A stretch of 27,874 nucleotides of DNA from Deltaproteobacteria bacterium TL4 (GTDB lineage: Bacteria > SAR324 > NAC60-12). Each line of letters opens with the position of its first letter. Positions within the stretch are counted from its first letter, which is position 1. This document shows positions 1,833 through 27,797 of this stretch, piece by piece. The position numbers were made by a program, and so were the translations under genes. The DNA is taken from assembly GCA_051382335.1 (NCBI GenBank), contig JBBCAX010000342.1, positions 1 through 27,874 on the forward strand. The letters are read 5' to 3'. The notes beneath the pieces are model-generated. The model made no database searches. It was not told the DNA's origin and saw only the letters and a program-made list of their open reading frames with translations.

Positions 1833-4085
1833 ATGAAACCGTTATCGCAACCAGTAAACGAACCGCAAGAACGCTTGCAGCCTTTAATGGAAGAGTTGAG
1901 CAGGAAACTGGACACCGAACAACTTCGACAATACAGCATGCCCTACCTCAGTGGCGTGCTGTGTCTTCTCGATTCAATTCAGGCGGTGCTCTCTTCACTA
2001 AAATTTCCTGTTTTTTTAAAAGTAATAGACCTTCTCAATCAGTTCATGGGGGACATTCTGGTTGAAAAGATGAGTTATTATAGCGGAATGTCTTATGTCC
2101 TGAATCTTTATGAACTATTTGAGGAGGCATGGTACTCATTGATAACCGGTCAGGAAAAATTTCCTGAACTGGAGCAAAATCTCCTCCGTTTGCGAAGCAT
2201 GTTCAACAGAGTGGACGTGGAAGGAATTATTCAAAGCACGGCTAACGAAGAAGCGACGATTCAGGTCCTGCGGGAAGATCTCAGAAAAGACACGGTCCTG
2301 TCAGATTTTGTCAGCGAGAGTCTGGAGGGCTTGGATGCGGTGGAAGCCACACTGCTGAGATTGGAAAATAATCCTGACCAGCTTGAACTGATCCAACCTG
2401 TTTTCCGCATGATCCATACGATCAAAGGAACCTCGGGATTCCTGGAACTTACCATCATCGGAACCCTGGCTCATCATTTGGAAGATCTGCTGGGGCAACT
2501 TCGGGACAGAACCCGCGTCTTTACGCTTCAGGTTTTTGAGGCTTGCCTTCACTCCGTGGATGTCCTCAAACAACTGATACAACAAGTGAGCGATCTTATT
2601 TATGAAGAGCCTCCTGTTCCTGTGAATGTCAAAGCCGCATATAAATTATTGAGCCTGTGTTTAGTCGCGGAAAAGAAGGTTCCAAGTTTCATTCCTGAGT
2701 TTGATAGCAACGCCTCTGCTTACATAAAACCGCTTGGAGCAATTCTGATAGAAAAAGGCATGGTTTCTCAGGAAGCGGTGAATGAGGCGCTTGAGGAACA
2801 AAACCGTCCCCTGGGGGAAATTCTGGTACAAAAGGGCATCGTTTCCCGTGAGGGCATGAACGCGGCGTTAACAGAACAGAGCACTCTTCCCAAGTCCTCT
2901 GGCAAAGAGGAAATGGTACGTGTCTCGTCTGCGAAATTGGATGAACTGGCGGAACTGATGGGTGAAATGGTGGTCGCGCTCTCCCTTTTGTCACAAAACA
3001 CGGAAATCGCGGCCGTTACCAGCAGAAGAACGCAGACTAACCGAAAAGCCCGTGAACGTCTCGAACAACTGGAAAAAGTCACCGAACATCTACGAGACCG
3101 GATTTTGGGTATGAGGATGTTCCCTGTCGGTTCCATTTTTAACAAACTCTCCCGCCAGGTTCGGGATCTGGCGCATAAATCAGGAAAACACGTCAACCTG
3201 TACTTTGAAGGCGAGGACACTTTGGTGGATAAAACCATTATTGATTCCATGTACTCTCCGCTGATGCATCTGGTCCGGAATGCCATTGATCATGGCCTTG
3301 AGTCCGCTGAGGAACGTCAAGAACAAGGAAAACCGACGGAAGGAAACCTCTACCTGCGAGCGCGACACCAGGGAGATTCCGTGATTCTGGAAATTGTGGA
3401 TGATGGCCGCGGTCTTCAAAGAGAGCTCATTTTGGCAAAAGCGATCAAACAAGGACTGCTCCGTCAGGGAGAAACCCTGACGGATCAACAGGTGTTTGCC
3501 TTTATTTTTCAGGCCGGGTTTTCCACAGCCAGCCAAGTGACTGATGTCTCGGGGCGAGGTGTGGGAATGGATGTCGTGAGACATGAAGTTGAAAAATTAC
3601 GTGGAAAAATCACGATCGAAAGCGCTCCTCATCAGGGAACTACTTTCACCATCCAGTTGCCGCTGACCACCTCCATCATTGAAGGTCTGGTGGTCAGGGT
3701 TGGAGACACTCGTTTTGTGATACCGATGCTGGATGCCAAACTAACCCATATTCCGAAACCCGAAGACCTGAAACGTATCCAGGGCGCGGAACAGGATCTA
3801 TTTCTCTTAGCTGGAGATTTGGTGCCCATTATCCGGCTGCATCAGTTCTATGCGCTGGAAAACGCGGTCACAGATCCCGCCAAAGCGGTCATGATCGTGG
3901 TTCAGGTTGAAAATAAAAAATATGGACTCATGACGGATGAATTATTACAGCGGCAACAGGTTGTCGTCAAAAATTTGGGAGATCGTTTTGCCCACCTCAA
4001 GGGAATCGCGGGTGGAACGATTTTGGGTGATGGGAGAATCGGTTTGATTCTCAATCCCCGCGAAGTGATAACCTGTCATCAATGA
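1833..4085 (+). CDS. cheA: Chemotaxis histidine kinase CheA
   Basis: Hpt FRMIHTIKGTSGFL, dimerisation VRVSSAKLDEL, HATPase PLMHLVRNAIDHG, DDGRG and SGRGVGMDVV, C-terminal CheW domain. Confidence 0.97.
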   Translation: MKPLSQPVNEPQERLQPLMEELSRKLDTEQLRQYSMPYLSGVLCLLDSIQAVLSSLKFPVFLKVIDLLNQFMGDILVEKMSYYSGMSYVLNLYELFEEAWYSLITGQEKFPELEQNLLRLRSMFNRVDVEGIIQSTANEEATIQVLREDLRKDTVLSDFVSESLEGLDAVEATLLRLENNPDQLELIQPVFRMIHTIKGTSGFLELTIIGTLAHHLEDLLGQLRDRTRVFTLQVFEACLHSVDVLKQLIQQVSDLIYEEPPVPVNVKAAYKLLSLCLVAEKKVPSFIPEFDSNASAYIKPLGAILIEKGMVSQEAVNEALEEQNRPLGEILVQKGIVSREGMNAALTEQSTLPKSSGKEEMVRVSSAKLDELAELMGEMVVALSLLSQNTEIAAVTSRRTQTNRKARERLEQLEKVTEHLRDRILGMRMFPVGSIFNKLSRQVRDLAHKSGKHVNLYFEGEDTLVDKTIIDSMYSPLMHLVRNAIDHGLESAEERQEQGKPTEGNLYLRARHQGDSVILEIVDDGRGLQRELILAKAIKQGLLRQGETLTDQQVFAFIFQAGFSTASQVTDVSGRGVGMDVVRHEVEKLRGKITIESAPHQGTTFTIQLPLTTSIIEGLVVRVGDTRFVIPMLDAKLTHIPKPEDLKRIQGAEQDLFLLAGDLVPIIRLHQFYALENAVTDPAKAVMIVVQVENKKYGLMTDELLQRQQVVVKNLGDRFAHLKGIAGGTILGDGRIGLILNPREVITCHQ

Positions 4086-4141
4086 AAGTTATCGGGGGAT
4101 GTCCCGTTGTCTTTTGAAACTAAACCGATAAAGGAGATTAA

Positions 4142-4630
4142 ATGGCTAAACAAGGAGCTTTATTTGAAACATCAGGAGGAAAACTGCTGACGTTCGCTTT
4201 GGCGGAGCAGGAATATGGGATCCCAATCCTGGAAACACGGGAGGTCGTAGGCCTCATGCCCATTGAAAGTGTGCCGCAAACCCCGCCCTTTGTCAAAGGT
4301 GTGATCAATTTACGAGGTAAAATCATTCCGGTGATTAGCCTGCGCAGTAAGTTTAACAAGCCTGAACAGGAATTTTGTAAAGAAACCTGCATCGTGGTAG
4401 TGGATATCCACAATACACTGACTGGAATGATCGCGGATTCGTTGTCAGGCGTGCTGACCGTTCAGGTTGACGCTTTTGAAGAACGTCCCCAGATGGGACA
4501 CAATGTTCGTACCGAGTTTATCGTCGGCATGGTCAAACAGGGAAAGCGCGTCATTATTGTGTTGGATATGGAAAAAATACTAGCCAACGAAGATTTGGCA
4601 TTCATTAAAACTACAAAGGAGGAAATATGA
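4142..4630 (+). CDS. cheW: Chemotaxis coupling protein CheW
   Basis: LTFALAEQEYGIPI and VPQTPPFVKGVINLRGKIIPVISLR; AAGGAG RBS. Confidence 0.97.
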   Translation: MAKQGALFETSGGKLLTFALAEQEYGIPILETREVVGLMPIESVPQTPPFVKGVINLRGKIIPVISLRSKFNKPEQEFCKETCIVVVDIHNTLTGMIADSLSGVLTVQVDAFEERPQMGHNVRTEFIVGMVKQGKRVIIVLDMEKILANEDLAFIKTTKEEI

Positions 4631-6600
4631 AAATGACCATTGGTATGAAAATAGGCTCAGGTTTTGGACTCATCACGGTATTACTGATTATCTTAAGCGC
4701 CATCGGCATCACTCAATTAAAGACCGTTGATGAAATCTACTCAGTCGATGTGACAAAGCAGACTAACATTGCGATTCAAGCAATACATGTTGTTGATCAA
4801 ATGATGGATATAACGGTCCTGGTTAAAACTTTTCTCATTGATCTTGAGATGAAGGATGCTGAAAAGGCTCAGCGACAAGCGGATGAGACACTCAAAACCA
4901 TTGACAAGATCCTGGCGCTTGGTCTTAAAAAAGAAGATCAGGATCGCCTCGAAAAAGTCCAGGGACACCTCAAGCGTTGGACGGAGATTTTTAACACAAT
5001 CGTTAAAGCGGAGGTTGAGAAAGGACTCACCGCAAATCAAGGCTTGAGAGCAAGCCTCACCAATGCAGCGTCAAAACTGGAGGAATCCCTAAAATCCACC
5101 TTGGGAGAGGCGGGGAATGTTTTGACCTTGAGCCTGGAGAAGGATGAAAAAATCTATTTACTGAAGCAAAACACCGCTTCGGCTGAAGCGTTTATTTCCG
5201 AAGTAGGGAAAACCAGAGCCAAAATTGAGCAGTCTCAACTCTCGGAAAGTGTTAAAAATCCCATAAGGAATAGCCTGGAGGATTATCTTAAAACCTTTAA
5301 TGCCCTGCTAGCCATGGATCGTATCCTTGAGGAGAATATTAAGAAAAACGCTCAGGAGTTGTCGAGTGCGGACGATCTTGCAAATGAGGCATCAAAAGTA
5401 GCAGAGATCTTGGCAAATGAACAACGTGAATATGCCGATGCTATTGCTCATACAGCCACAACGCTCTTATGGATTGTGAGTGTTCTGGCGGTGGCACTCG
5501 GGTTCGTGTTTGGTGTTTATCTGACGATCAACATCAGGGGGTTATTGACTTCATTGATCTCCGATCTATCGAACTCCGCCACGCAGTTAGCTTCAGCTTC
5601 TCAGCAGATTTCTGATAGTTCCCAACAACTCTCTTCAGGAGCCACGGAACAAGCCGCGAGTTTGGAGGAAACTTCGAGTTCCATGGAAGAGGTTTCCAGT
5701 CAAACCAAGGAAAACGCTGATAACGCAACCTCAGTCGCGGTTTCGATGGCGAGCATCTCCGCTAGTGTGAAGCAGGTCGCGGAGGACTCCAAAATCACAG
5801 CGGCGCTCTCCGAGGAATCCAGACAAGCCGCTGAAAATGGCGCTAAGTCCATGCAGGATATTCGTCAGGGCAGCGATAAAATTACTGAAATCATTGAAGT
5901 CATCAATGACATCACCATTCAAACCAAAATGTTGGCAACCAATGCCGCCATTGAAGCCGCACGGGCTGGAGACCAGGGCAAAGGTTTCGCGGTGGTCGCG
6001 GATGAGGTTTCCAAACTTGCGGAACACTCCAAAACCGCGGCGAAAGATATTGCCACCTTGATCAGGGAAAGCGCCAGCAAATCACGGGAAGGCGAAATTT
6101 TGCTGCAGGATATCCTCACGAAATCGGTGAAAGTAGCGGGGTTGGTTGGAAACATCGCTCATGCGACCAATGAGCAGGCGGAGAAGGTCGGACACGCGGA
6201 GAATATGATTAACAGCATCAAGCTGGCTTCGGTTCAGCAAGCTGATGGGGTGGAACAAGTGACCCGCGCGTTGATGGATATGGACAAAGTCACTCAGTCA
6301 AACGCCGCTAATGCCGAACAAACCGCCAGCGCCGCTGAAGAACTTGCGGGACAGGCGCAAATGCTCAGTGAAATCGTGGCTGAGGTGTCCACCCATGTAG
6401 GGATCAAAGGAGCCTTGGCGGGAAGTGGTTCCCGTGTCCGCTTGGCTCAGAAGGGGTATAAACCTCATAGTCCAGTCCACAAAAATCTGACGTCTTCAAG
6501 GTCGCATAGTTCCTCTCATACGCTTGTGTTAGCAAGGAATGATCAGCGGATCAAACCCACGGACGCCATACCGCAACAGGAAGACTTCAAGGAGTTTTAA
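4627..6600 (+). CDS. Methyl-accepting chemotaxis protein
   Basis: Two TM helices flanking a ~250-aa helical periplasmic domain; tip QTKMLATNAAIEAARAGDQGKGFAVVADEV; methylation helices EQAASLEETSSSMEE; C-terminal xFxxF pentapeptide DFKEF. Confidence 0.97.
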   Translation: MKMTIGMKIGSGFGLITVLLIILSAIGITQLKTVDEIYSVDVTKQTNIAIQAIHVVDQMMDITVLVKTFLIDLEMKDAEKAQRQADETLKTIDKILALGLKKEDQDRLEKVQGHLKRWTEIFNTIVKAEVEKGLTANQGLRASLTNAASKLEESLKSTLGEAGNVLTLSLEKDEKIYLLKQNTASAEAFISEVGKTRAKIEQSQLSESVKNPIRNSLEDYLKTFNALLAMDRILEENIKKNAQELSSADDLANEASKVAEILANEQREYADAIAHTATTLLWIVSVLAVALGFVFGVYLTINIRGLLTSLISDLSNSATQLASASQQISDSSQQLSSGATEQAASLEETSSSMEEVSSQTKENADNATSVAVSMASISASVKQVAEDSKITAALSEESRQAAENGAKSMQDIRQGSDKITEIIEVINDITIQTKMLATNAAIEAARAGDQGKGFAVVADEVSKLAEHSKTAAKDIATLIRESASKSREGEILLQDILTKSVKVAGLVGNIAHATNEQAEKVGHAENMINSIKLASVQQADGVEQVTRALMDMDKVTQSNAANAEQTASAAEELAGQAQMLSEIVAEVSTHVGIKGALAGSGSRVRLAQKGYKPHSPVHKNLTSSRSHSSSHTLVLARNDQRIKPTDAIPQQEDFKEF

Positions 6601-7431
6601 TTGGGGATCGAACCTTTGTTGGAAATGGATGACACGGAGTTTGGACTCTTTAGCAAGTTGATCTATAATAGCTGTGGCATCCATCTCGGAGAGAGTAAGA
6701 AATCGTTGTTGATCTCCCGGTTGAGCAAACGTATGAGGGAACTGGGATGCGCTTCCTTCCATGAGTATCGCCGACTGGTGAGTGAGGACGCATCAGGAAA
6801 AGAAAGGGTTTTGCTGATCGATGCCATTTCAACCAACAAAACTGATTTTTTTCGAGAGCCGCAGCATTTCGATTTTTTACAAGAGGAGGTTTATCCTACC
6901 CTGTTGAAACGTCGCGTCATTCGTTTGTGGAGTTCAGCCTGTTCCACGGGAGAGGAACCTTACACCCTGGCCATCCATCTTCTGAAAAATCTGGGTACAG
7001 CAGGACCGAAGGGGCGGGATATCAAGATCCTGGCCACGGATATTTCCACCAAGGTGTTGGCGGCGGCAGTACAGGGCGTTTTCTCTGAGGATAAAATCAG
7101 TGTGTTGCCCAAAGACCTGCTTCACACTTATTTTCTGCAGGGAATGAACCAGTGGTCGGATTACTACATGATCAAAAATCAGGTGAAGCAAATGATTCGT
7201 TTTCGACGGCTTAATCTGGTTGAGGAATTTCCACTCACCGCGAAGTTTGATGTCATCTTTTGCCGCAATGTCATGATCTACTTTGATAAGTTCACCCAGG
7301 CTCAATTGATTCAAAAATTCAGTCGGCAGTTAGCGCCAGGGGGTTATTTGTTAATCGGGCATTCCGAAAGCCTGAATGGAATTCCGAATTCCCTGCAATA
7401 TGTGCGGTCAACGATTTATCGCAAATTATAG
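6601..7431 (+). CDS. cheR: Chemotaxis methyltransferase CheR (start may be the ATG at 6625)
   Basis: TNKTDFFREPQHF, WSSACSTGEEPYTLA, ILATDIS, FDVIFCRNVMIYF, GHSESL. Confidence 0.97.
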   Translation: MGIEPLLEMDDTEFGLFSKLIYNSCGIHLGESKKSLLISRLSKRMRELGCASFHEYRRLVSEDASGKERVLLIDAISTNKTDFFREPQHFDFLQEEVYPTLLKRRVIRLWSSACSTGEEPYTLAIHLLKNLGTAGPKGRDIKILATDISTKVLAAAVQGVFSEDKISVLPKDLLHTYFLQGMNQWSDYYMIKNQVKQMIRFRRLNLVEEFPLTAKFDVIFCRNVMIYFDKFTQAQLIQKFSRQLAPGGYLLIGHSESLNGIPNSLQYVRSTIYRKL

Positions 7432-7445
7432 AGATCCGGAATACT

Positions 7446-8591
7446 ATGAGCTACTATCAGGATTACAAGAGCGATAAACTCACTACCATTCTACTGCCGG
7501 GGGAGGTGTTAGTGACGCAGAAGGATATGGTGATCAGCACGGTGCTGGGCTCCTGTGTGGCTGTCTGTTTGTGGGATGAAAAACACCGTCTGGGAGGCAT
7601 GAATCATGTCATGCTGCCGGTATGTGGAGAACAAGAGGTCCCAACTACCAAATTCGCGAATGTGTCCACTTTTGTGCTGTGTCATTTGCTGAAGGACAAA
7701 GGTCTTCAGCTCCGCTCGTTATCTGCCAGGGTTTTTGGCGGGGCGGATTCCCGGACGGAGGCCGCCAAACAATTGGTTGGAAGTGTGGGGCTTAGAAATC
7801 TGGAGGTGACCTTCGCTGTTTTGCAACGCCTGGGCCTTCCCGTTACAGGGCAAGACATTGGAGGAGGTCAAGGGCGAAAAATCTGGTTTGACGTGGGTTC
7901 TGGAAAAATCAAAATGGTGTATCTGACAAAATATGATTTCACGAGGGAAACGCGGACACTCTTCAAAACGAGTGAAAATCCCACTTTGGAGAGCCTATCC
8001 TCCCGACCGGTTGGCACGCCCAGGGTCATAGCCATTGGAGCTTCAACGGGAGGAACCGAGGCGATCAATAAAATCCTGGCGGGGTTACCCCCGAAAACTC
8101 CAGGCATCGTGATCGCTCAACATATGCCTGAGGCGTTTACGCCTATGTTTGCGGAACGTTTGAATCAAAACTCCCAAATGGAAGTGCGAGAAGCGAGAAA
8201 TGGAGATGAGGTCCGTGAGGGCTTGGCCCTGCTGGCTCCAGGAAATCAACACATGGAACTCAAACTTAAAAACTCCCAATATTACGTGATGTTGAGTCAG
8301 GGGCCCAAAGTGTGTCGGCATCGACCTTCGATTGATGTGCTGTTCAAGTCTGTAGCCGAGACTGCGGGCAAACAGGCGTTGGGGGTTTTATTGACGGGCA
8401 TGGGCTATGATGGAGCACAGGGATTGCTCACGGTGCGTAAACAGGGAGCGATTACCCTGGTACAGGATGAAGCCAGTTCTGTAGTGTTTGGAATGAACAA
8501 GGCCGCCATTGAGTTGGGTGGAGCGCAACAGATTCTTTCTTTGTCAGAAATCGCGTCCAGGCTCTCAACTTTTTCCTTCGTTAAAAACTGA
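7446..8591 (+). CDS. cheB: CheD deamidase fused to CheB methylesterase catalytic domain, no receiver domain
   Basis: aa 1-160 CheD (PGE, TVLGSCVAVCLWD, GGMNHVMLP, VFGGA, VGLRN); aa 193-381 CheB (IGASTGG, QHMP, HRPSIDVLF, LTGMGYDGA); single uninterrupted frame. Confidence 0.93.
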   Translation: MSYYQDYKSDKLTTILLPGEVLVTQKDMVISTVLGSCVAVCLWDEKHRLGGMNHVMLPVCGEQEVPTTKFANVSTFVLCHLLKDKGLQLRSLSARVFGGADSRTEAAKQLVGSVGLRNLEVTFAVLQRLGLPVTGQDIGGGQGRKIWFDVGSGKIKMVYLTKYDFTRETRTLFKTSENPTLESLSSRPVGTPRVIAIGASTGGTEAINKILAGLPPKTPGIVIAQHMPEAFTPMFAERLNQNSQMEVREARNGDEVREGLALLAPGNQHMELKLKNSQYYVMLSQGPKVCRHRPSIDVLFKSVAETAGKQALGVLLTGMGYDGAQGLLTVRKQGAITLVQDEASSVVFGMNKAAIELGGAQQILSLSEIASRLSTFSFVKN

Positions 8592-9757
8592 TGACTCACA
8601 AGCCGACTTTAAGCAACGATCCCGCGACAACCACGGCCTTACCATCTCGGATTCTGGTGGTGGATGATGAGTTAGACGTGCGGAAATTTTTTACCAGTTA
8701 TTTGCAAAGAAGAACCTCCTATCAGGTAGAATCTGCTGTCGATGGCAGAGAAGCCCTGGAAAAATATTTGAGCGTGAAAGCTTCCGATCAGGTCTATCAT
8801 CTCCTGCTGGTTGATTTGAACATGCCACGGATGGATGGAGAAACCCTCATTCGGGAAATTCGTAAAATAGATACCTACCTCGCGATCATTGTTCTTACAG
8901 GTCATGGCGATTTAACCAAAGCGTTTGAATTGCTGAAAGACTGTCAAATTTTCGATTATCTGACTAAACCTGTGCATCCACCTGAGCACCTTTTGTTTTC
9001 CATTGAAAGTGCCCTGGATAAGCAACGACTTCTGCGTCAAAATCAGGAACTCTGGCAATTGGATCGAATGAAAGATGATTTGACCGCGATGATTTCGCAT
9101 GAATTCAGGACGCCTCTTACCTCCATTATAGGCTACACCGAGGCTTTGCGGGAGTGTCCCACCACACAGGTACAGCAGCAGCAATTTCTGGCTATTATTT
9201 TTGAAGAAGCAGAGCGTTTGGAACGTCTGGTGAAAAATATTTTGGAGATCTCCCATTTTTCTCAAGGGAAACTGGAACTCCAACTGACAGAGCTCGAATT
9301 GGAGGCCCTCCTTCAAAAAGTGACTTCTATCCTAAAATGTTTGATCTTCGAAAAAGAGATTATTCTTGAATGGCAGACAACTCCTGTTCGTTTTGAGGGA
9401 GACGCTGATCGTATGGAGCAGGTTTTGATCAATTTACTTGACAATGCGATCAAATTTTCGCCTAAAAGAGGAAGGATTACCCTCTGTTGTGAACCAGCCC
9501 CGCACCAATTTAAGGTTTCCATTCAGGATCAGGGGCAGGGGATTGCTGAAGATGAACTGGAAAAAGTGTTTACACGTTATTATCAGAGTCATCGGCATCA
9601 ATCAGAAATCAAAGGCAACGGTTTAGGACTCAGCATTGCCAAATATATTATCGACGCTCATCAGGGCGTGATTTGGGCAGAGAATATTGGGAAAGGCGCG
9701 AAATTCTGTTTTACGCTCCCCTTGAAGCAAACGAATATCCATCATAAGGAGGAATAA
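8591..9757 (+). CDS. Cytoplasmic hybrid histidine kinase (REC-HisKA-HATPase)
   Basis: ILVVDDE, DLNMP and LTKP receiver motifs; SHEFRTPLT H-box; NLLDNAIKF, DQGQGI, GNGLGLSI; start overlaps the upstream stop. Confidence 0.95.
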   Translation: MTHKPTLSNDPATTTALPSRILVVDDELDVRKFFTSYLQRRTSYQVESAVDGREALEKYLSVKASDQVYHLLLVDLNMPRMDGETLIREIRKIDTYLAIIVLTGHGDLTKAFELLKDCQIFDYLTKPVHPPEHLLFSIESALDKQRLLRQNQELWQLDRMKDDLTAMISHEFRTPLTSIIGYTEALRECPTTQVQQQQFLAIIFEEAERLERLVKNILEISHFSQGKLELQLTELELEALLQKVTSILKCLIFEKEIILEWQTTPVRFEGDADRMEQVLINLLDNAIKFSPKRGRITLCCEPAPHQFKVSIQDQGQGIAEDELEKVFTRYYQSHRHQSEIKGNGLGLSIAKYIIDAHQGVIWAENIGKGAKFCFTLPLKQTNIHHKEE

Positions 9758-9761
9758 AACT

Positions 9762-10127
9762 ATGAAATCGAAAATAATGATTGTGGATGATGAAAAGCCT
9801 ATTAGGGAGTTAGTAGCGTTTAGGCTGGAAAATCAGGGTTTCCAGTGCACGAATGTGGAAAATGGAACAGAGGCTTTGAGAGTCATTCGAACAAATCGTC
9901 CGAGTTTGGTTATTCTGGACGTCATGCTGCCCGACATCAATGGGTTGGAGGTCTGTAAGACAATAAAATCCAATCCGGAGACCCAGGCGATCAAGGTTCT
10001 TTTATTAAGCGCGAAAGGTCAGCAGGAAGATCAAGACAAGGGCTTTGCGGCGGGAGCTGATGCTTATATCACCAAACCTTTTCTCGCAAAACAACTGCTT
10101 AACGCGATGGAGCGGGTTTTGATCTGA
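9762..10127 (+). CDS. Single-domain response regulator
   Basis: IMIVDDE, ILDVMLP, LLSAK, YITKPF; AAGGAGG RBS. Confidence 0.95.
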   Translation: MKSKIMIVDDEKPIRELVAFRLENQGFQCTNVENGTEALRVIRTNRPSLVILDVMLPDINGLEVCKTIKSNPETQAIKVLLLSAKGQQEDQDKGFAAGADAYITKPFLAKQLLNAMERVLI

Positions 10128-20703: not shown

Positions 20704-23700
20704 TTATTGACTTATCTTCAATTGCTTCAGTTCCTTCAACACAGAAAGATCCCGGATCTGCGTTCCTTGAAGTTCCAATTGTCGCAAGTTTCTGAGACTT
20801 TTTAAAACGCTAAGATCCTCAATAACAACGCCTCGAATTTTCAAAACTTGTAAGCTGGTCAAATTGGCAATTCCCTTGAGATTCTTGACCTGCGTATGGC
20901 TTAGATCCAGTTGACGTAAGTTTCGGTTCCATTTCAATACCTCAAGCTCATGAATGGGGTTACCACTCAAATCTAAATGGGTTAATTGGTTCAGGTTATT
21001 TAAAGAGGAGATATTGGTAATCCCTGTCATACTGATATCGAGTTCACGAAGTTGGTTCATTCCTTGAGTTACCTTATTTAACTCAGTAAGAGGAACCCCT
21101 CGTAGTTTGAGAACTTTCATTTGGGTTAGTTGCGCAAGAGGCGAAAGGTTTGAGACCGGGACGTAACTTAAGTTGAGCTGTTCTAAGGACGTTAAGTCGG
21201 CTAACGCTTTCAAATCTCGGACTTGGGTTCCTTGCAGATTGAGGGAATGCAACTGCTTGAGCTGACTCAAAGAATCAAGGGACTGGATGGGCGTATGACT
21301 GAGGTTCAGACTGGTTAATTGTGTCAATTCATTAAGAAAAATGACGGAAGCAAGTGAGGTGGAAGCAAGATTTAGCGCAACCAAGTTCTTTAATTGGCTC
21401 AACGCGTGTCCTTGCTCTACGCCTGTAAAACTTAAATTTAGCCGTGTCAATTCAGGAAAAAGTGTTAAAGGACCAAGATCTTTTACGTGCATCATCCCTG
21501 ACAGGTCAGCAGAGCGGATAGGTGGCATTTGGGAAAACTCAGCTTGATAGGTGTCGACTTGTTGTTTGAGTTCAGTGACATTCCAGACTGAAAGCTTTTG
21601 ACGAATCTCCAAATACTGTTTTTGTTCTTCAGGGGACATTTCAGCAATCCTGTTTTCTAAAACGCCACGTTCATTTTTTTCAACTTCGAGGCTTAATTCT
21701 GCTTGAAATTTGCTGAGGACTTGCTGGAGTTTTTCAACGCTAGGGTCTTCACCTTTCAATAAATGACTTTCTATGGCCTGTTGTAGGAGCGCCTGAGTAT
21801 TTTGCTTCCGTTCTTCAGGCAACAGGTGACTTTCTACATTTTTGTATAAATCCTGCATCTCTTGTAAGGACGGAGTCCCTGCTTGAAGCCCTTCTTGTTG
21901 AAAGTCAGACAAAATACGGTGTTCCGCACTTTTTCTCAATACATTCACATATTGGTCGAGGTTTTGGTCAAAAACTGATTGGGATTTGCTTAAACTTTCA
22001 GAATCTTTCAGATAAGTTTGATAATCTCTGACGATGGATTCCGCATCATTGAGGTCTTTCCACATTTCAGGCGTGACAGGAAACTTGGTATTTCTCATGG
22101 TTTGGGCCAAGATTCCTGCGGTGGTAGTCGATTCCAGGACAACCAGCATTTTTTTATTTTTCTTTTGAATGTCCGTATACATTTCATTCCATTCTTCAAT
22201 GGAAAGGTCCTGGGGTTTCGCCAAAGGATCTCCTATCTTCGGATCATCTTCCAGCGCGGCTTTCAACAATTGGTGCGTCTCTTTTTGCAGTTTTAAGGTT
22301 TTCTGAATTTGTTCGCCAACAGGACCTTCCAAGGCTTTCCCCATGGCGTCACTACTTTGAGTTGGGGCCTGTTCGTGGCTGGGAGTGGTACCTTCACTTG
22401 AAAGACGGCTTCCTTGCAAAAAGGAGGGATTCAATGGGGTCAGAGCTTGAATATTACCCGTTTGAGAATTGGTTGACATTTGACCTGCGGGAATCAGTAT
22501 CTTTTCATTCAACATCAATGACGCCAGTTCAACTTTTCCTTCAAGGGTTCCCACTCGTGTGACCGAGTCTTCAAATTCAACAATAAAATCCGTGCCAATC
22601 ACCGTGACTTGGGAAGTGGGTGTCGTGACTTTGACTTGCTCTTGGGATCTTTTCTTAATTTGGACTCGTATTCGCCCTTGCTTCAAGGTCACTAAGGTCA
22701 CAGTAGAATCGTTTGCGTTTTGAGACATCAAAAGGACTTTGGTCAGGCGTTGAATTTCAAGGGTATCTCCGGATTGAAAATGAATCACGGCAACTCCTGA
22801 GGAATCGGTAAAGACAAAATCATCTTCATAAAGTGAAAACTGGGGCTGTTGCACTATTTCTGTTTTATTATTGCGGTTGATTGATACATTTCCAGTTTGA
22901 ACCGTCAACGACGCGACAGAAGGCCGAGTTTGCTTCAAGGTTTTTTCAAGCGTACTTTTCCAAAAAATCAATCCTGTAATGGCGATGACAGCTAAAATTC
23001 CAGTGAGGCCAATCAGTAAACTGAGATTTCCAGCTTTTGATGTTTTCTTCTTTTTTGAGATTCCCCTTGGTTTGTTTTCACTCGGTTGGGGCGGTTCTTG
23101 TAATAGTTTAAACTTATGAGACAAGACCTCGTAGGAATCGGTCAGGCCGCAAGTCTCTCGCAGCTCCTCCAGTAACATCTGAACTTCGGTGAAATTATTC
23201 TGTTCGATCTGGATCTGAATCATTTCTTCAAAAACGTGCTCTATGAGAGCGCTATAGTTATTACTTTTTCCATATTTTGACTTGTAATCATGCAGCAAAG
23301 ATTTGGCTTTTTCGAAGTTTTTCTTTTCTATGGCATCATTGATTTTAATCTGTAATCCAAAGGCTTTTGTTGTCGCTGCCATTTGCAAAGATTCGAGGGC
23401 TTGGGAATCTTCTTGCGCCAATTCAAATACTTTTTTCATATGAGCATAAAGTTCTCGTTCCAAACGGGTAAACTCCTGATCCGCGGCAATAACCCGCACC
23501 ACCAGTTCAGCCACCTCCTTTTTTCCTTGTTCATCCAAGGTCAACGCTAATTTTTTTATGTTCTGATCAAAGCGTTCTTCTGTATTTGTAAGACTTAAGA
23601 CAACCTGAACCCGATCCTTGATGAACTGGGTTATCGCCTCCCGATCTTCAGCAACATGGGTTTCGATAAAGCTCAGAATCACTTCCAACTCTGAATCTTC

Positions 23701-23766
23701 AAAACCATCAATGCCGCTCATGATGAGTAAACATTCCAATAATTGATCGATCTGTTCATTAGTCAT
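20704..23766 (-). CDS. TerB-like / TM / FecR / leucine-rich repeat protein (start 23766 or 23790)
   Basis: IMSGIDG..DSE and VIAADQEFTRLERE TerB-like motifs; TM LSLLIGLTGILAVIAITGLIFW; FecR LKQGRI...VTTPTSQVTVIGTDFIV; about 11-12 22-aa LxxLxLSxTxV repeats. The ORF-track start overlaps trxB by 53 nt. Confidence 0.85.
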   Translation of the reverse strand: MTNEQIDQLLECLLIMSGIDGFEDSELEVILSFIETHVAEDREAITQFIKDRVQVVLSLTNTEERFDQNIKKLALTLDEQGKKEVAELVVRVIAADQEFTRLERELYAHMKKVFELAQEDSQALESLQMAATTKAFGLQIKINDAIEKKNFEKAKSLLHDYKSKYGKSNNYSALIEHVFEEMIQIQIEQNNFTEVQMLLEELRETCGLTDSYEVLSHKFKLLQEPPQPSENKPRGISKKKKTSKAGNLSLLIGLTGILAVIAITGLIFWKSTLEKTLKQTRPSVASLTVQTGNVSINRNNKTEIVQQPQFSLYEDDFVFTDSSGVAVIHFQSGDTLEIQRLTKVLLMSQNANDSTVTLVTLKQGRIRVQIKKRSQEQVKVTTPTSQVTVIGTDFIVEFEDSVTRVGTLEGKVELASLMLNEKILIPAGQMSTNSQTGNIQALTPLNPSFLQGSRLSSEGTTPSHEQAPTQSSDAMGKALEGPVGEQIQKTLKLQKETHQLLKAALEDDPKIGDPLAKPQDLSIEEWNEMYTDIQKKNKKMLVVLESTTTAGILAQTMRNTKFPVTPEMWKDLNDAESIVRDYQTYLKDSESLSKSQSVFDQNLDQYVNVLRKSAEHRILSDFQQEGLQAGTPSLQEMQDLYKNVESHLLPEERKQNTQALLQQAIESHLLKGEDPSVEKLQQVLSKFQAELSLEVEKNERGVLENRIAEMSPEEQKQYLEIRQKLSVWNVTELKQQVDTYQAEFSQMPPIRSADLSGMMHVKDLGPLTLFPELTRLNLSFTGVEQGHALSQLKNLVALNLASTSLASVIFLNELTQLTSLNLSHTPIQSLDSLSQLKQLHSLNLQGTQVRDLKALADLTSLEQLNLSYVPVSNLSPLAQLTQMKVLKLRGVPLTELNKVTQGMNQLRELDISMTGITNISSLNNLNQLTHLDLSGNPIHELEVLKWNRNLRQLDLSHTQVKNLKGIANLTSLQVLKIRGVVIEDLSVLKSLRNLRQLELQGTQIRDLSVLKELKQLKISQ

Positions 23767-23779
23767 GTCGGCCGTACCG

Positions 23780-25066
23780 TTATTGCGCATCGTCGATTTC
23801 TCTGGTCGCTGTGATAGCAGCCTTCGTACCATCGGATACCGCTACCGTAATTTGGCGATAGGGATTATTGGCCACATCTCCAACCGCAAAAACATCTTTT
23901 ACATTCGTTCTCATGAAAACATCTGTTTTTATATAACCCCATTGATCTTTTTCGAACACATCCCCGAAAACATCGATGTTGGGTTTCATCCCCGCAAAAA
24001 TAAAGACGCCATGAGTGGAAAGCGTTTTATGCTCCTGGGTTTTTAAATTTTCGACGATAACTGCCATTCCCTTTTCCGTCTTTTCAAATTTTCTGGGCTC
24101 ATGCTCAAACAAAAACGCGATTTTTTCATTGGCGAACGCTCTTTCTTGAGCCAGCTTATTGGCCTGTAACTTGGCAAATTGGTGGACGATTGTCAGTTTT
24201 GAAGCAAATTTTGTGATAAACAGAGATTCTTCAACCGCTGAATTCCCTCCCCCAATCACGATCACTTCTTTATCTTCAAAATATTTTCCGTCACAAGTGG
24301 CACAATAACTGATCCCATCGCCTTTATACTCTTCTTCGCCGGGAACGCCCAATAATCGGTGACTTGAACCGGTCGCTATAATGATTTTTTTAGCTCTAAT
24401 CGTTTCAATGCCATCAATGACAAGCTCTTTCTTGTAAAGATCCGCACTGGTCACATCCACCGCGTACCGTCTTTCAACGCCTGCGCCAACAGCTTGTTCA
24501 TTCATTTGATGCATTAACATAAAGCCTTCAATGGGGGCTATAAACCCGGGAAAGTTACTGACCAGATGAGTTTTGGAGACCTGTCCCCCAGCGAGTCCCA
24601 CGTCAATAATGACGGTTCTTAATTTAGCTTGAGCCGTGTAAATTCCAGCGGTTAAGCCCGCGGGGCCGGCTCCGAGAATGGCAATATCGAACTCTGTTTC
24701 AAAGGGCTGAATTTTACTTTTCAAGGCGGTTGCCTGTTCGGTGCCAAGCATGGCGTCAAGGTTTTTGACGATATCCGCCCTTTTGATGCCGCCCGTCAAC
24801 TTGTCGCCAACAATTTTTCCATTATTATAAAACAACAGCGTTGGCGAACTGTTAACCTTCAGCTTATTCGCCAGTTCCCGATTCCCCTGTCTGAAAATTT
24901 TAACAAATTTAATATCTTTTCCGTAAATCTCGTTCAGGCTACTGAATTTTGAGGCTAAGGCTTCACAGGGTGGACATTCGGTAGAATAAAAGTCAAACGC
25001 GACAAGTCCGCCCTTGAGTATCTCACTTTCATATTGACCCGCGTTAATTTCCATAATTTTTCCCAT
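23780..25066 (-). CDS. trxB: Thioredoxin::thioredoxin reductase fusion
   Basis: N-terminal Trx DFYSTECPPC; GAGPAG, SYCATCDG, GGGNSA and VFAVGDV in the reductase. Confidence 0.93.
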   Translation of the reverse strand: MGKIMEINAGQYESEILKGGLVAFDFYSTECPPCEALASKFSSLNEIYGKDIKFVKIFRQGNRELANKLKVNSSPTLLFYNNGKIVGDKLTGGIKRADIVKNLDAMLGTEQATALKSKIQPFETEFDIAILGAGPAGLTAGIYTAQAKLRTVIIDVGLAGGQVSKTHLVSNFPGFIAPIEGFMLMHQMNEQAVGAGVERRYAVDVTSADLYKKELVIDGIETIRAKKIIIATGSSHRLLGVPGEEEYKGDGISYCATCDGKYFEDKEVIVIGGGNSAVEESLFITKFASKLTIVHQFAKLQANKLAQERAFANEKIAFLFEHEPRKFEKTEKGMAVIVENLKTQEHKTLSTHGVFIFAGMKPNIDVFGDVFEKDQWGYIKTDVFMRTNVKDVFAVGDVANNPYRQITVAVSDGTKAAITATREIDDAQ

Positions 25067-25067
25067 T

Positions 25068-26378
25068 TTAATTCTCCCTATTGAAATATATTGAAATTCC
25101 CATCTCCAATAATTGAGCTACTGGACGACAATCTTCAGACAACAGCGCACCGCCTCTTTTCTTGGCCACAGAGGCACATCCGCCTCCGCAGGCTAAGGCC
25201 AGGTTACAGCGCCGACATTTGTCGATCGATAAAACATCTCGCTTTCCCCATGCTTCAAGGAGGTCTTCTTTTTTAGTGATTTGTGGGTAAAAGGTACCCA
25301 GTTCCTCTCCTTTTTTTCCAACGGTTGCGGTGCAGGCGTAAATGTTGCCAGTGTAATCAAAAGCCCATTCTGACTTGGTCGCAGGACAAGCATCAAAAAG
25401 CGGCTCAGGAAGTTCACCCTGGTCAAACAGAAATCTTGACACAGAAAAAGCCGGTTTATGAAATTTAAGAAAATCAGGATATTTTTTGACTATTTCATAA
25501 ATTCTCTCATAGAGACTGATTCTGGTATACAATTTGGAACTGTCGGACTGGCAGGTGTGCAATTCATAATTTCGCCCAAGTTGTGTCTTAAACAGAGGGG
25601 TGTCCGTCCATCCCCTGTCAATGGCGTACTTGGCGAGTTCCTCCAGGTTATCAATATTTTCTTTGTCCACAACAACCCTTAAATTGATGGGGATTTCGTG
25701 GTCTAAGCATAAATCGATACCCGAGACAATTCTATCAAAAGTAGCGCTTCCATTTTTCAAGGCTCTTCTTTTATTGTGAAGATCTTGGGTCCCATCGAGC
25801 GTAACCTGGATTTCCTTAAGGGAGGCTTTTTTCAAAAGCTCGACATATTCAACCAGCGTATATCCGTTGGTCACAGCCGCTATTTGAAGGTGTCTTTGAT
25901 TGGCTTTCTCAATGAGGGCTTTAACGTTTTTTTTGCTGCTTCCATTATTCAAGAACGGTTCGCCACCAAAAAGGGTAATATATTTCTTCCTGGAGCCAAA
26001 CTCATGGTCAATATAGTGAAAAAAGGAGTCGAGGATTTCATCAGTCAAGGGATTTTGTTCTTGAATATACTCCCTTTGGTAGCAATACTCGCAGTTAAAA
26101 TTGCAACTGTAGTGAGGGACAAAAAATATCTGAATTTCATCATGTTCCCTGTTTTCAAGAAATTCGAGATATTTCATTTTAAACATTTCGTTTTCTTTTT
26201 TTTCCTCTACCAAATAGCCTTTTTCGATATACTCATCCCTCTCTGAGTATTGTTCTGTTTCAATTTCACGGGCTTTTTGCGGGGAAAGAATATCGGCGTT
26301 TCCTGTCAACAGGTTGACTATAAAAAAATCATCAGAATCTTTAATTTTTGAGAAAATATTGTGGCGAGAGAAAATCAC
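25068..26378 (-). CDS. Radical SAM/SPASM peptide maturase
   Basis: CNFNCEYC, FGGEP, TNG, QVTLDG; seven-Cys SPASM (ACPA, YACT, CRRCNLALACGGGC, DCR); ~80-aa N-terminal extension resembling an RRE. Confidence 0.93.
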   Translation of the reverse strand: MIFSRHNIFSKIKDSDDFFIVNLLTGNADILSPQKAREIETEQYSERDEYIEKGYLVEEKKENEMFKMKYLEFLENREHDEIQIFFVPHYSCNFNCEYCYQREYIQEQNPLTDEILDSFFHYIDHEFGSRKKYITLFGGEPFLNNGSSKKNVKALIEKANQRHLQIAAVTNGYTLVEYVELLKKASLKEIQVTLDGTQDLHNKRRALKNGSATFDRIVSGIDLCLDHEIPINLRVVVDKENIDNLEELAKYAIDRGWTDTPLFKTQLGRNYELHTCQSDSSKLYTRISLYERIYEIVKKYPDFLKFHKPAFSVSRFLFDQGELPEPLFDACPATKSEWAFDYTGNIYACTATVGKKGEELGTFYPQITKKEDLLEAWGKRDVLSIDKCRRCNLALACGGGCASVAKKRGGALLSEDCRPVAQLLEMGISIYFNREN

Positions 26379-26414
26379 TTTTTACCTGACAGAAGCTGAG
26401 TTGGGACAAGTTTA

Positions 26415-26447
26415 GCAAGTAAGGAGGAATCAAGTCTCCCTACTTGC
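26415..26447 (-). terminator. Stem-loop between peptide gene and maturase (attenuator or mRNA stabiliser)
   Basis: Minus-strand GCAAGTAGGGAG-9 nt-CTCCTTACTTGC, 12-bp stem with one G-U pair; no U tract. Confidence 0.6.
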
Positions 26448-26463
26448 CGCTTATTGATCGAGA

Positions 26464-26559
26464 CTAGTCATGGCAACCAGCAACAGCAGTCGATACCTTT
26501 GCACAACACTGTGCGACGGCTTTGCAGTTACAGGACTTCTTTTTTATCAAAGACTTCAT
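26464..26559 (-). CDS. 31-aa Cys-rich putative RiPP precursor
   Basis: MKSLIKKKSCNCKAVAQCCAKVSTAVAGCHD*, AAGGAG 5 nt before the ATG, directly upstream of the SPASM gene. Confidence 0.88.
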   Translation of the reverse strand: MKSLIKKKSCNCKAVAQCCAKVSTAVAGCHD

Positions 26560-26598
26560 GCGTTCTCCTTGTTTGAGGTTAACGAAACTATGGCAGAA

Positions 26599-27237
26599 TC
26601 AGGGTTTCCAGCCCATGATGGTAAAACTGGAAACCACGGTCTTGCCTTTTTCATAAGGCTCACTTTCCTTACACACGGTAATACGTTCAAAGCCGGTATT
26701 CTTCAGTGTGGTCAGATATTCATCTCTTGTTACGGCTCCTGCCCAGCATTCGGATATTGCGACTAGATCATTTTTGTATTCGTCAGGAATAACTTCTGAT
26801 GAGTAAATATCACTCACAACAAATCGGCCTCCCTGCTTTAAAATTCTGTAGATCTCTCGCCAAACCGCCTTTTTATCGGTCGCGTGATTGATCGTACAGT
26901 TTGATACAACCAGATCTGCTTTTTCATCCGCAAGGGGTAAATGACGCAGCTCTGTTTGAACAAACTCAACATTATGTACGTCGAGCTTTTCCGCATTTTC
27001 TCTGGATTTTTTGAGCATCCCTTCAGAAACATCGATGCCATAGCAAAATCCCTCTTCACCAACAATTATGGCCATTTTCAACAAGTCATGACCTCTGCCA
27101 CTGCCCAAGTCAACACAGACTTCACCCTTTTGCGGCTTGGAAGAATCTAAGGTGTCTCCACATGATAAACAACATTGACCCTCAGCAAGATCCGAATATC
27201 TCCTATTGATTTCCTCAAGGCTAATCTCAATGGACAT
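26599..27237 (-). CDS. arsM: Arsenite methyltransferase (ArsM/AS3MT)-like SAM methyltransferase
   Basis: CCLSCG, DLGSGRG, SNCTINH (C114), ECWAGA (C164); GGGAG RBS. Confidence 0.78.
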   Translation of the reverse strand: MSIEISLEEINRRYSDLAEGQCCLSCGDTLDSSKPQKGEVCVDLGSGRGHDLLKMAIIVGEEGFCYGIDVSEGMLKKSRENAEKLDVHNVEFVQTELRHLPLADEKADLVVSNCTINHATDKKAVWREIYRILKQGGRFVVSDIYSSEVIPDEYKNDLVAISECWAGAVTRDEYLTTLKNTGFERITVCKESEPYEKGKTVVSSFTIMGWKP

Positions 27238-27270
27238 TCGATCTCCCTTCTATAACACCATGATTCATTT

Positions 27271-27429
27271 TCATTTCCAATTGACTTCTATTTTTTTATC
27301 CCCAATTTCTTTTTTTGCGATTTTTGCCAAGCTTAGAAGTTCATCTTTGCAGCAATCAATTGTTTTTGCATTTTTTATTCGTTGAGCCAATTCGTCAGCA
27401 AACTCACTTATTGTAATTACTTTTTTCAT
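27271..27429 (-). CDS. 52-aa small protein with vicinal Cys-Cys
   Basis: MKKVITISEFADELAQRIKNAKTIDCCKDELLSLAKIAKKEIGDKKIEVNWK*, GGAG RBS, stop 33 nt before the methyltransferase start. Confidence 0.8.
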   Translation of the reverse strand: MKKVITISEFADELAQRIKNAKTIDCCKDELLSLAKIAKKEIGDKKIEVNWK

Positions 27430-27531
27430 CGTCTTCTCCATGGTTTAATGTAAGATTTCAATCTTTACTCTTTGAAGCTAATTGCTTCCACAAACTTATT
27501 ATTCCAAGGTCCAGAGCAATATCCCTAGTCT

Positions 27532-27595: not shown

Positions 27596-27797
27596 CGGCA
27601 CCTTTCATTTTTAGTTTACAGTTTATCTCATGACGTGGCTCTGCTACGTCATGTTAACGATCGAGGCTCTGCCTCCGAGGCTCTGCCTCGCCAAACCAGG
27701 CAGAGCCTGGGCAATAGGGATTCCGTGGCAGAGCCACGGAACCAGAAGAGGGTTGAGTAAACTGTCAACTAAAATTCATCGTTTTTGAAAGGTGTCT
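27596..27797. mobile_element. Nested MITE/REP element
   Basis: Outer IR GGCACCTTTCA / TGAAAGGTGTC, inner IR TTTTAGTTTACAGTTTA / TAAACTGTCAACTAAAA, five GGCTCTGC/GCAGAGCC units inside; the outer end recurs near 11840. Confidence 0.7.

Follow-up and report, generated by a model that had tools for sequence, protein, structure and literature searches.

In a stretch of 27,874 nucleotides (nt) from contig JBBCAX010000342.1 (assembly GCA_051382335.1) of Deltaproteobacteria bacterium TL4, here called the window, positions 23780 to 27429 carry a gene cassette. Its four-gene core is a real syntenic system that recurs in several bacterial phyla and consists of an ArsM-clade methyltransferase (MT), a short Cys-rich peptide, a radical S-adenosylmethionine enzyme with a SPASM domain (rSAM), and a thioredoxin-thioredoxin reductase fusion (Trx::TrxR). 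The reality of the genes, their linkage, conservation, clade membership, and motifs are established. We propose tentatively, with slightly less than even confidence, that the cassette carries out intracellular maturation of a peptide that is ribosomally made and then post-translationally modified (RiPP), coupled to the methyl chemistry of a trivalent metalloid, most likely As(III), apart from the ars resistance and arsenosugar pathways. The genes, all on the minus strand, are as follows.

27429-27271, minus strand: Cys-Cys miniprotein, 52 amino acids (aa); ATG at 27429 with a GGAG site; without known family; accessory
27237-26599, minus strand: compact ArsM-clade S-adenosylmethionine (SAM) methyltransferase, 212 aa; closest PDB structures are arsenite methyltransferases
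26559-26464, minus strand: precursor-like peptide, 31 aa; AGGAG site; purifying selection at the codon level
26378-25068, minus strand: rSAM/SPASM enzyme with an N-terminal extension like a RiPP recognition element, 436 aa; GTG start
25066-23780, minus strand: Trx::TrxR fusion, 428 aa; Pfam Thioredoxin and Pyr_redox_2

All five co-oriented open reading frames of the preliminary description, with gaps of 33, 39, 85, and 1 nt from the miniprotein to Trx::TrxR, were found again. The domains that it had assigned agree with Pfam, which gave Methyltransf_31 for the MT, Radical_SAM for the rSAM enzyme, and both domains of the fusion. Its claim of a five-gene operon stood for the four-gene core and failed for the miniprotein, which accompanies 3 of 79 loci and is accessory. 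Ribosome-binding sites are clear for four of the five genes, and a weak one precedes the GTG of the rSAM gene; a longer miniprotein reading from an ATG at 27441 has no Shine-Dalgarno-type site, unlike the ATG at 27429. Promoter and terminator scans of the locus stayed at or below the shuffle level (6 versus a mean of 8.0 and 2 versus 5.2), and Rfam gave zero matches there.

A GTDB genome scan with the rSAM query confirmed 95 stretches, and the best 80 were kept, giving 79 loci whose rSAM enzymes are 48 to 59% identical to the query. These loci belong to Bacteroidota, Spirochaetota, Ignavibacteriota, Gemmatimonadota, Elusimicrobiota, Myxococcota, and other phyla, and the carriers are for the most part uncultured. 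The order MT, peptide, rSAM, Trx::TrxR was found in 56 of the 63 loci having at least 1.5 kb of flank on both sides. Four of the seven exceptions lack Trx::TrxR, two have the MT and rSAM genes only, and one has the rSAM gene alone; at locus L052, the peptide and Trx::TrxR are paired elsewhere in the same genome. In 30 Spirochaetota loci, the MT was present in 30, Trx::TrxR in 29, and the peptide in 30 when CC[S/T]K variants are counted. Synteny of the MT and Trx::TrxR with maturase homologues, on which the preliminary description had staked its reading in advance, therefore holds. The reverse comparison agrees: cassette-type MTs occur in 4 of 401 Bacteroidota genomes (centre genome included), and all four adjoin the peptide and the rSAM gene. 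A divergent subfamily (rSAM 35 to 39% and MT 33 to 41% identity) has the same four genes in the same order, with an extra DUF5714 gene in four of six divergent Spirochaetota loci. Sequence identities between pairs of loci rise and fall together for the three enzymes (Spearman 0.72 to 0.85 in 69 loci, kin not being independent).

The rSAM clade was found in 43 of 401 Spirochaetota genomes, about one in ten (46 matches minus three weak ones), and in 13 of 301 genomes of the phylum of locus L069; the peptide was found in 27 of 151 genomes of the Bacteroidota family of locus L047. Distribution in the host lineage is patchy (2 of 41 genomes, host counted), and in the sole other carrier, G009, the set of five genes is complete and identically ordered (73 to 90% identity). 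The closest named MT homologue (75%) comes from a SAR324-cluster genome. The rSAM group comprises at least 3312 protein clusters (E <= 1e-100), and the 120 listed bear generic names only. Nothing nearer than 28%-identical Bacillus rSAM enzymes was found on plasmids.

Annotation of recurrent cassette neighbours covered 60 of 101 families, and none of these was a conserved protease or exporter, in line with the absence of both that the preliminary description had noted. The second methyltransferases beside eight loci are not of the ArsM type. An IS1595 zinc-ribbon protein of about 144 aa, possibly a domesticated regulator, is encoded divergently to the cassette at 33 of the 79 loci (e.g., L006:3757-4188), and in 12 loci of the Spirochaetota type a MarR gene takes its position. 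In L069 (judged by eye) and L085 (scored), the cassette is followed by a gene for an OPT-family transporter, the only hint of transport. At L008, the part from rSAM to TrxR is tandemly duplicated on one contig, which may be an assembly artefact.

The peptide consists of a leader-like M-K-S-L-I-K-K, a variable linker, and a fixed-length 16-residue core, AxCCxKxS...GCHD. Residues A16, C18, C19, K21, G28, C29, and H30 are invariant in the core, and S23 and D31 are nearly so, in members found with motif patterns that demand some of the invariant residues; Ser or Thr stands four residues past C19 in 128 of 128 members. Only three of the five Cys residues are conserved (C18, C19, and C29), and C10 and C12 of the window peptide are linker variants. 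The core motif is present at 99 of the 107 close loci; the 52 distant-rSAM loci all lack it. Five of the eight close loci that lack it are at or near contig ends; the other three are L052 and L066 and L077, in which last two the peptide was looked for and not found. Codon differences from the 99 homologues number 729 synonymous and 349 non-synonymous. Since several codons are in use for every invariant residue and the stop codons after the peptide are of three kinds, the peptide is encoded by a gene under selection; this selection and the recurrence in close loci bear out the initial recognition of a short Cys-rich peptide beside a SPASM enzyme. NCBIfam had a family at a useful E value for 0 of 72 peptide members, and the ESM Atlas matches were all below 0.9. 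The strings CCAK, GCHD, and MKSLI are absent from the precursor sheet in a compendium of 15,000 enzymes (PMC10288494 supplement, whose enzyme sheet gives UniProt identifiers only). A motif scan that allowed stops at the Cys positions had no selenocysteine variants among the matches listed. The near-invariance of the peptide across phyla suggests a specific chemical product rather than a bacteriocin. Cofactor peptides of the mycofactocin and pyrroloquinoline quinone type likewise combine a near-invariant core across phyla with an rSAM/SPASM maturase and no exporter; compared with these, the cassette has no conserved peptidase and has a Cys-based core and an ArsM-type partner.

The rSAM enzyme has a CxxxCxxC motif at positions 92/96/99 and seven SPASM Cys residues (C331, C349, C388, C391, C397, C401, and C417), and all ten cluster Cys residues are kept in 93 of 93 homologues. 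A SPASM match was not obtained from Pfam; the seven-Cys pattern aligns with the SPASM domains of CteB and anSME, which together with 8VPO are the nearest structures. The members share the clade motif GRNYEL and form a well-supported clade in a quick tree with a midpoint root, as was also used for the MT. The nearest models, all below cut-off, are CefB (151/600), TIGR04463 (142/525), and PapB (116/340), and also Clo7bot; neither ArsS (TIGR04167) nor ArsL was among the 25 best NCBIfam matches listed. The N-terminal extension of about 80 residues aligns with the N termini of CefB and 8VPO and gave no PqqD match. With seven Cys residues, auxiliary cluster I (AuxI) would have an open iron, to which the substrate Cys is believed to bind in thioether formers according to excerpts from PMC13692751. 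An eighth residue, C276, is invariant in 93 close members and absent in five divergent ones, on account of which C276/H274 was rejected as an essential eighth ligand across the clade.

Six catalytic-site positions of CteB are given as F, F, T, S, H, and Q in sections of PMC10288494, and the positions mapped to them by alignment are Y, F, V, T, T, and A. V169 thus replaces Thr, T350/A351 replace His/Gln, and four of the six differ besides the change from Phe to Tyr. Because of these differences the reaction is not readable from the rSAM family, and the Thr-Ala in place of the His-Gln loop of CteB may leave room for non-standard chemistry. Among rSAM relatives, P0008 and P0011 are fused to DUF5714 and P0036 is fused to an ArsM-type MT. 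At L110:3987-8860, two tandem rSAM/SPASM genes (31% identical to the query) are followed by genes for a NifU-like protein, SaoD (169.1 versus a cut-off of 169), and a MerB/SaoL-like lyase.

Residues C26, C114, and C164 of the MT align with C72, C174, and C224 of CmArsM. This triad is present in 92 of 92 members, and the third catalytic Cys is present in 128 of 128, MTs at 33 to 41% identity included; most ArsMs need conserved Cys residues for catalysis, as stated in passages of PMC8552651. The protein has a class I SAM-dependent methyltransferase fold, and its top five PDB matches are all arsenite methyltransferases. The 23 cassette MTs in the tree form one long-branched clade (SH-aLRT 99) grouped with ordinary bacterial ArsMs (95). 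Clade and triad together uphold the ArsM-like identity proposed at the outset, and it is these motifs of the MT that suggest arsenic as its substrate. The enzyme scores 192 bits against PRK11873 (cut-off, 263), its shorter length costing score, and 107/500 and 80/400 on the models for ArsMs of the arsinothricin and arsenosugar pathways. It is about 35 to 40 residues shorter before C26, through an internal deletion or an N-terminal truncation, and 12 residues separate RY and the first catalytic Cys motif, versus 44 to 53 in ordinary ArsMs. H118, W165, P194-Y195, and K197 are invariant residues specific to the cassette MTs. Three other contigs of the host bear a second ArsM-type gene, ArsS (contig C112), and a full ars operon, and 7 of 9 other cassette genomes checked (4/4 plus 3/5) also have a second ArsM, so the cassette MT looks specialised.

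An extra Cys pair is present in most cassette MTs (C22 in 86 and C23 in 85 of 92) and absent in the divergent subfamily; at the N-terminal fourth ArsM Cys (the C44 equivalent), two alignments are possible. The peptide has an extra Cys pair at seven of eight loci where the MT lacks its N-terminal pair versus 17 of 106 otherwise (nominal p = 6e-5). About two lineages account for the swap, a single clade supplying six of its seven cases; of three further loci, one showed the swap and two were counter-examples, making 8 of 11. Compensation between the MT and the peptide was accordingly rejected as an established pattern and is a hint only.

Trx::TrxR has a thioredoxin CPPC and a reductase CATC site, and both CxxC motifs are invariant. 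In its reductase part GxGxxA is kept (GGGNSA) and HRRxxxR is replaced by HQ(F), with H295 and Q296 in 77 of 77 members. Enzymes without HRR use NADH, ferredoxin, or unknown donors according to portions of PMC10880999 and PMC5627308, and the cassette enzyme is probably not NADPH-specific. The canonical HRR-type housekeeping TrxR of the host is a separate gene on contig C34, so the cassette reductase looks dedicated, which supports the suggestion that the cassette has its own reductant supply.

The miniprotein is a real but dispensable partner. Its C26-C27 pair is invariant in 16 of 16 aligned homologues, and Pfam, the PDB, and the ESM Atlas gave no usable match. Near the three GTDB loci that have it, the gene is usually downstream; in G009 it is upstream of the MT, as in the window. 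Among 401 Spirochaetota genomes it occurs in 17, of which 14 belong to the 43 rSAM carriers (Fisher p = 2e-12, overstated by kinship), and in a fifteenth it directly precedes a cassette-type MT. In L267 and L268, miniprotein homologues are directly followed by TerB-family genes.

From sequence we infer the substrates, products, and binding of the cassette proteins as follows. The rSAM enzyme would use its N-terminal extension to bind the short, basic leader, as expected from its family, and the motifs of Trx::TrxR suggest that it could keep the Cys residues of the peptide and the MT reduced with NADH or another non-NADPH donor. The MT would bind As(III) by C26/C114/C164 and methylate it, probably on, or passed from, the three thiols of the peptide. 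The rSAM enzyme may then generate a radical at a carbon of one of the invariant core residues and couple it with a heteroatom bound at the open auxiliary cluster. This heteroatom could be Cys sulfur, giving a thioether (the family default), or methyl-arsenic, giving a C-As bond, and the two would be about equally likely given the ArsM partner. The proposal thus has two branches, one with a metalloid-binding peptide rigidified by thioethers and one with a true C-As bond. Three thiols in a peptide and a thioredoxin system suit As(III) chemistry. The stronger version, in which the peptide has a covalent C-As bond (methyl-arsenic capped or As bridged) or serves as a specialised carrier of arsenic in the making of a new organoarsenical, we regard as doubtful.

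Several observations weigh against a role of arsenic. At a distance of up to 1.5 kb, an ars gene accompanied 1 of 64 cassette MTs versus 24 of 26 ordinary ArsMs, with the host ars operon proteins and three ArsR-family proteins from cassette loci as queries and with the top-scoring ordinary ArsMs, all from Bacteroidota, as controls. The whole-locus count was 4 of 98, three of them including self-hits. The MT falls under the cut-off of every ArsM model, and its substrate may have changed, in view of its long branch, shortened N terminus, and own invariant residues. All characterised near relatives of the rSAM enzyme act without arsenic, and the recurrent neighbours are of redox and sulfur type (DUF302, YgaP, rhodanese, OsmC, DUF1847, extra thioredoxins, MarR, and Crp). 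The lack of a conserved exporter or protease among them also counts here. In favour of arsenic, other ArsM subtypes have been taken up by more distant rSAM relatives outside the cassette clade, in two cases of uncertain tree position: the rSAM::ArsM fusion P0036 and L109:58-9437, with an OPT-like transporter, a 47-aa CC...GCE peptide, an rSAM/SPASM enzyme, and a full-length ArsM-type MT with three catalytic Cys residues. L109, which further encodes a TldD/PmbA pair, an FAD monooxygenase, and an M3-like peptidase, is a separate ArsM-linked RiPP candidate, possibly with an exported product.

Genome content bears on the same question. ArsS and TIGR04282 are both absent in three of five cassette genomes, and the host ArsS is a different gene; replacement of ArsS by the cassette in arsenosugar synthesis was rejected on this survey. 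Acr3 is present in five of five cassette genomes and in 7 of 14 control genomes and does not discriminate. Because of the ars-neighbour comparison and the ArsS/TIGR04282 survey, the cassette is not an ars resistance operon, nor is it an arsenosugar pathway, and separate biosynthetic use of As(III) is compatible with both results.

The closest competitor to coupled maturation and metalloid methylation is an arsenic-free thiol or sulfur system, which we consider quite possible, if on balance improbable. In such a system the rSAM enzyme would form ranthipeptide-like Cys thioether cross-links, e.g., to S23 or D31, a repurposed MT would methylate a peptide thiol, a persulfide, or another sulfur species, and Trx::TrxR would keep thiols free, the product being an intracellular redox or metal-binding peptide. 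The nearest characterised rSAM enzymes do form thioethers, and the seven-Cys SPASM domain with a predicted open AuxI iron resembles those of CrpC and CteB as described in parts of PMC13692751 and PMC10352776. The absence of C276 in five divergent members, the universal Ser or Thr past C19, the sulfur and redox neighbours, and the almost zero ars linkage fit as well. However, this explanation does not account for the ArsM catalytic triad, which is invariant in MTs down to 33% identity, and the catalytic-site positions depart from those of CteB. Less probable, in our view an outside chance, is that the peptide is a reusable metalloid carrier, tethered by its leader to the rSAM enzyme and presenting As(III) or methyl-As on its three thiols to the MT and the rSAM enzyme; a small organoarsenical would be built by ArsS-like radical addition, after which Trx::TrxR would reset the peptide. 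The invariant core, the dedicated reductase, and the lack of a conserved protease or exporter would suit a recycled carrier, as would the extra peptide Cys pair where the MT pair is missing (7/8 versus 17/106) and DUF5714, which joins as a gene in four of six divergent Spirochaetota loci or as an rSAM fusion. On the other hand, the Cys-pair swap covers about two lineages with two counter-examples, and in the three of five cassette genomes where ArsS and TIGR04282 are absent the product is for that reason not an arsenosugar precursor.

A plain arsenic detoxification operon of ArsM and reductase with a passenger peptide/rSAM pair is very improbable. An ArsM-clade MT does stand beside a thioredoxin system, and at L096, the only locus with a clear adjoining ars operon, the cassette is followed by genes for ArsR, ArsF, ArsG, and ArsP. 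Yet a cassette-type MT was never found without the peptide and the rSAM gene in the reverse comparison, the identities of the three enzymes co-vary, ArsR linkage is almost zero, and the host ars operon is on another contig than the cassette.

The cassette shares with the SCIFF/CteB ranthipeptide system (5WGG and 5WHY), PapB, CrpC, CefB, and TIGR04463 the combination of a short Cys peptide and an N-terminally extended seven-Cys SPASM rSAM enzyme. It differs from CteB-type systems in an rSAM enzyme under all cut-offs with a Y/F/V/T/T/A rather than an F/F/T/S/H/Q catalytic site, in its peptide, and in its obligate ArsM-clade MT and Trx::TrxR partners. The MT resembles ArsM/AS3MT (CmArsM, 4FR0 and 4KW7; CrArsM, 5EVJ; human, 8XT7) in nearest structures, in the equivalents of C72/C174/C224, and in tree placement, whereas its 212-aa length, shortening before the first Cys, long-branched clade, and lack of ArsR linkage set it apart. 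Pairing of an rSAM enzyme with an ArsM-type MT is also known from the arsinothricin genes arsQML (ArsL plus ArsM) and from arsenosugar ArsM plus ArsS, according to parts of PMC8552651; neither pathway has a peptide, unlike the cassette. The same excerpts describe ArsL as a single-cluster enzyme that transfers ACP (the 3-amino-3-carboxypropyl group), and the arsinothricin system has an exporter, whereas the cassette rSAM enzyme is an N-terminally extended SPASM maturase, so the analogy drawn with arsinothricin in the preliminary description proved weak.

The system looks undescribed. No published description of the cassette, and none of the reports of arsM-linked RiPP clusters mentioned in the preliminary description, was found in the full-text literature searched, outside which most subscription journals lie; source databases give generic names only for the cassette proteins. 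Should the peptide incorporate or carry arsenic, the chemistry of ribosomal peptides would become part of the arsenic cycle, and a C-As peptide or carrier would represent a branch of arsenic biochemistry that is widespread among anaerobes and so far unrecognised, together with a new SPASM-maturase reaction. If the system is arsenic-free, an ArsM-clade enzyme would have a new substrate, and some metagenome arsM counts would be miscounts. The four proteins are small and soluble, which makes the question directly testable.

Other features of the window were also noted. A gene of about 1020 aa at 20704-23766 on the minus strand has FecR and leucine-rich-repeat domains (Pfam) and a weak TerB-like N terminus (Pfam E value 0.006, below cut-off). 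It may be co-transcribed with the cassette, since a possible start is 13 nt past the TrxR stop; in G009 this gene does not follow the cassette. Upstream of the miniprotein, at 27609-27774, is a 166-bp element resembling a miniature inverted-repeat transposable element, with 17-nt terminal inverted repeats, internal palindromes, and partial copies on six other contigs. A chemotaxis cluster at 1833-10127 on the plus strand encodes CheA, CheW, a methyl-accepting chemotaxis protein (MCP), CheR, a CheD::CheB fusion, a kinase, and a response regulator.

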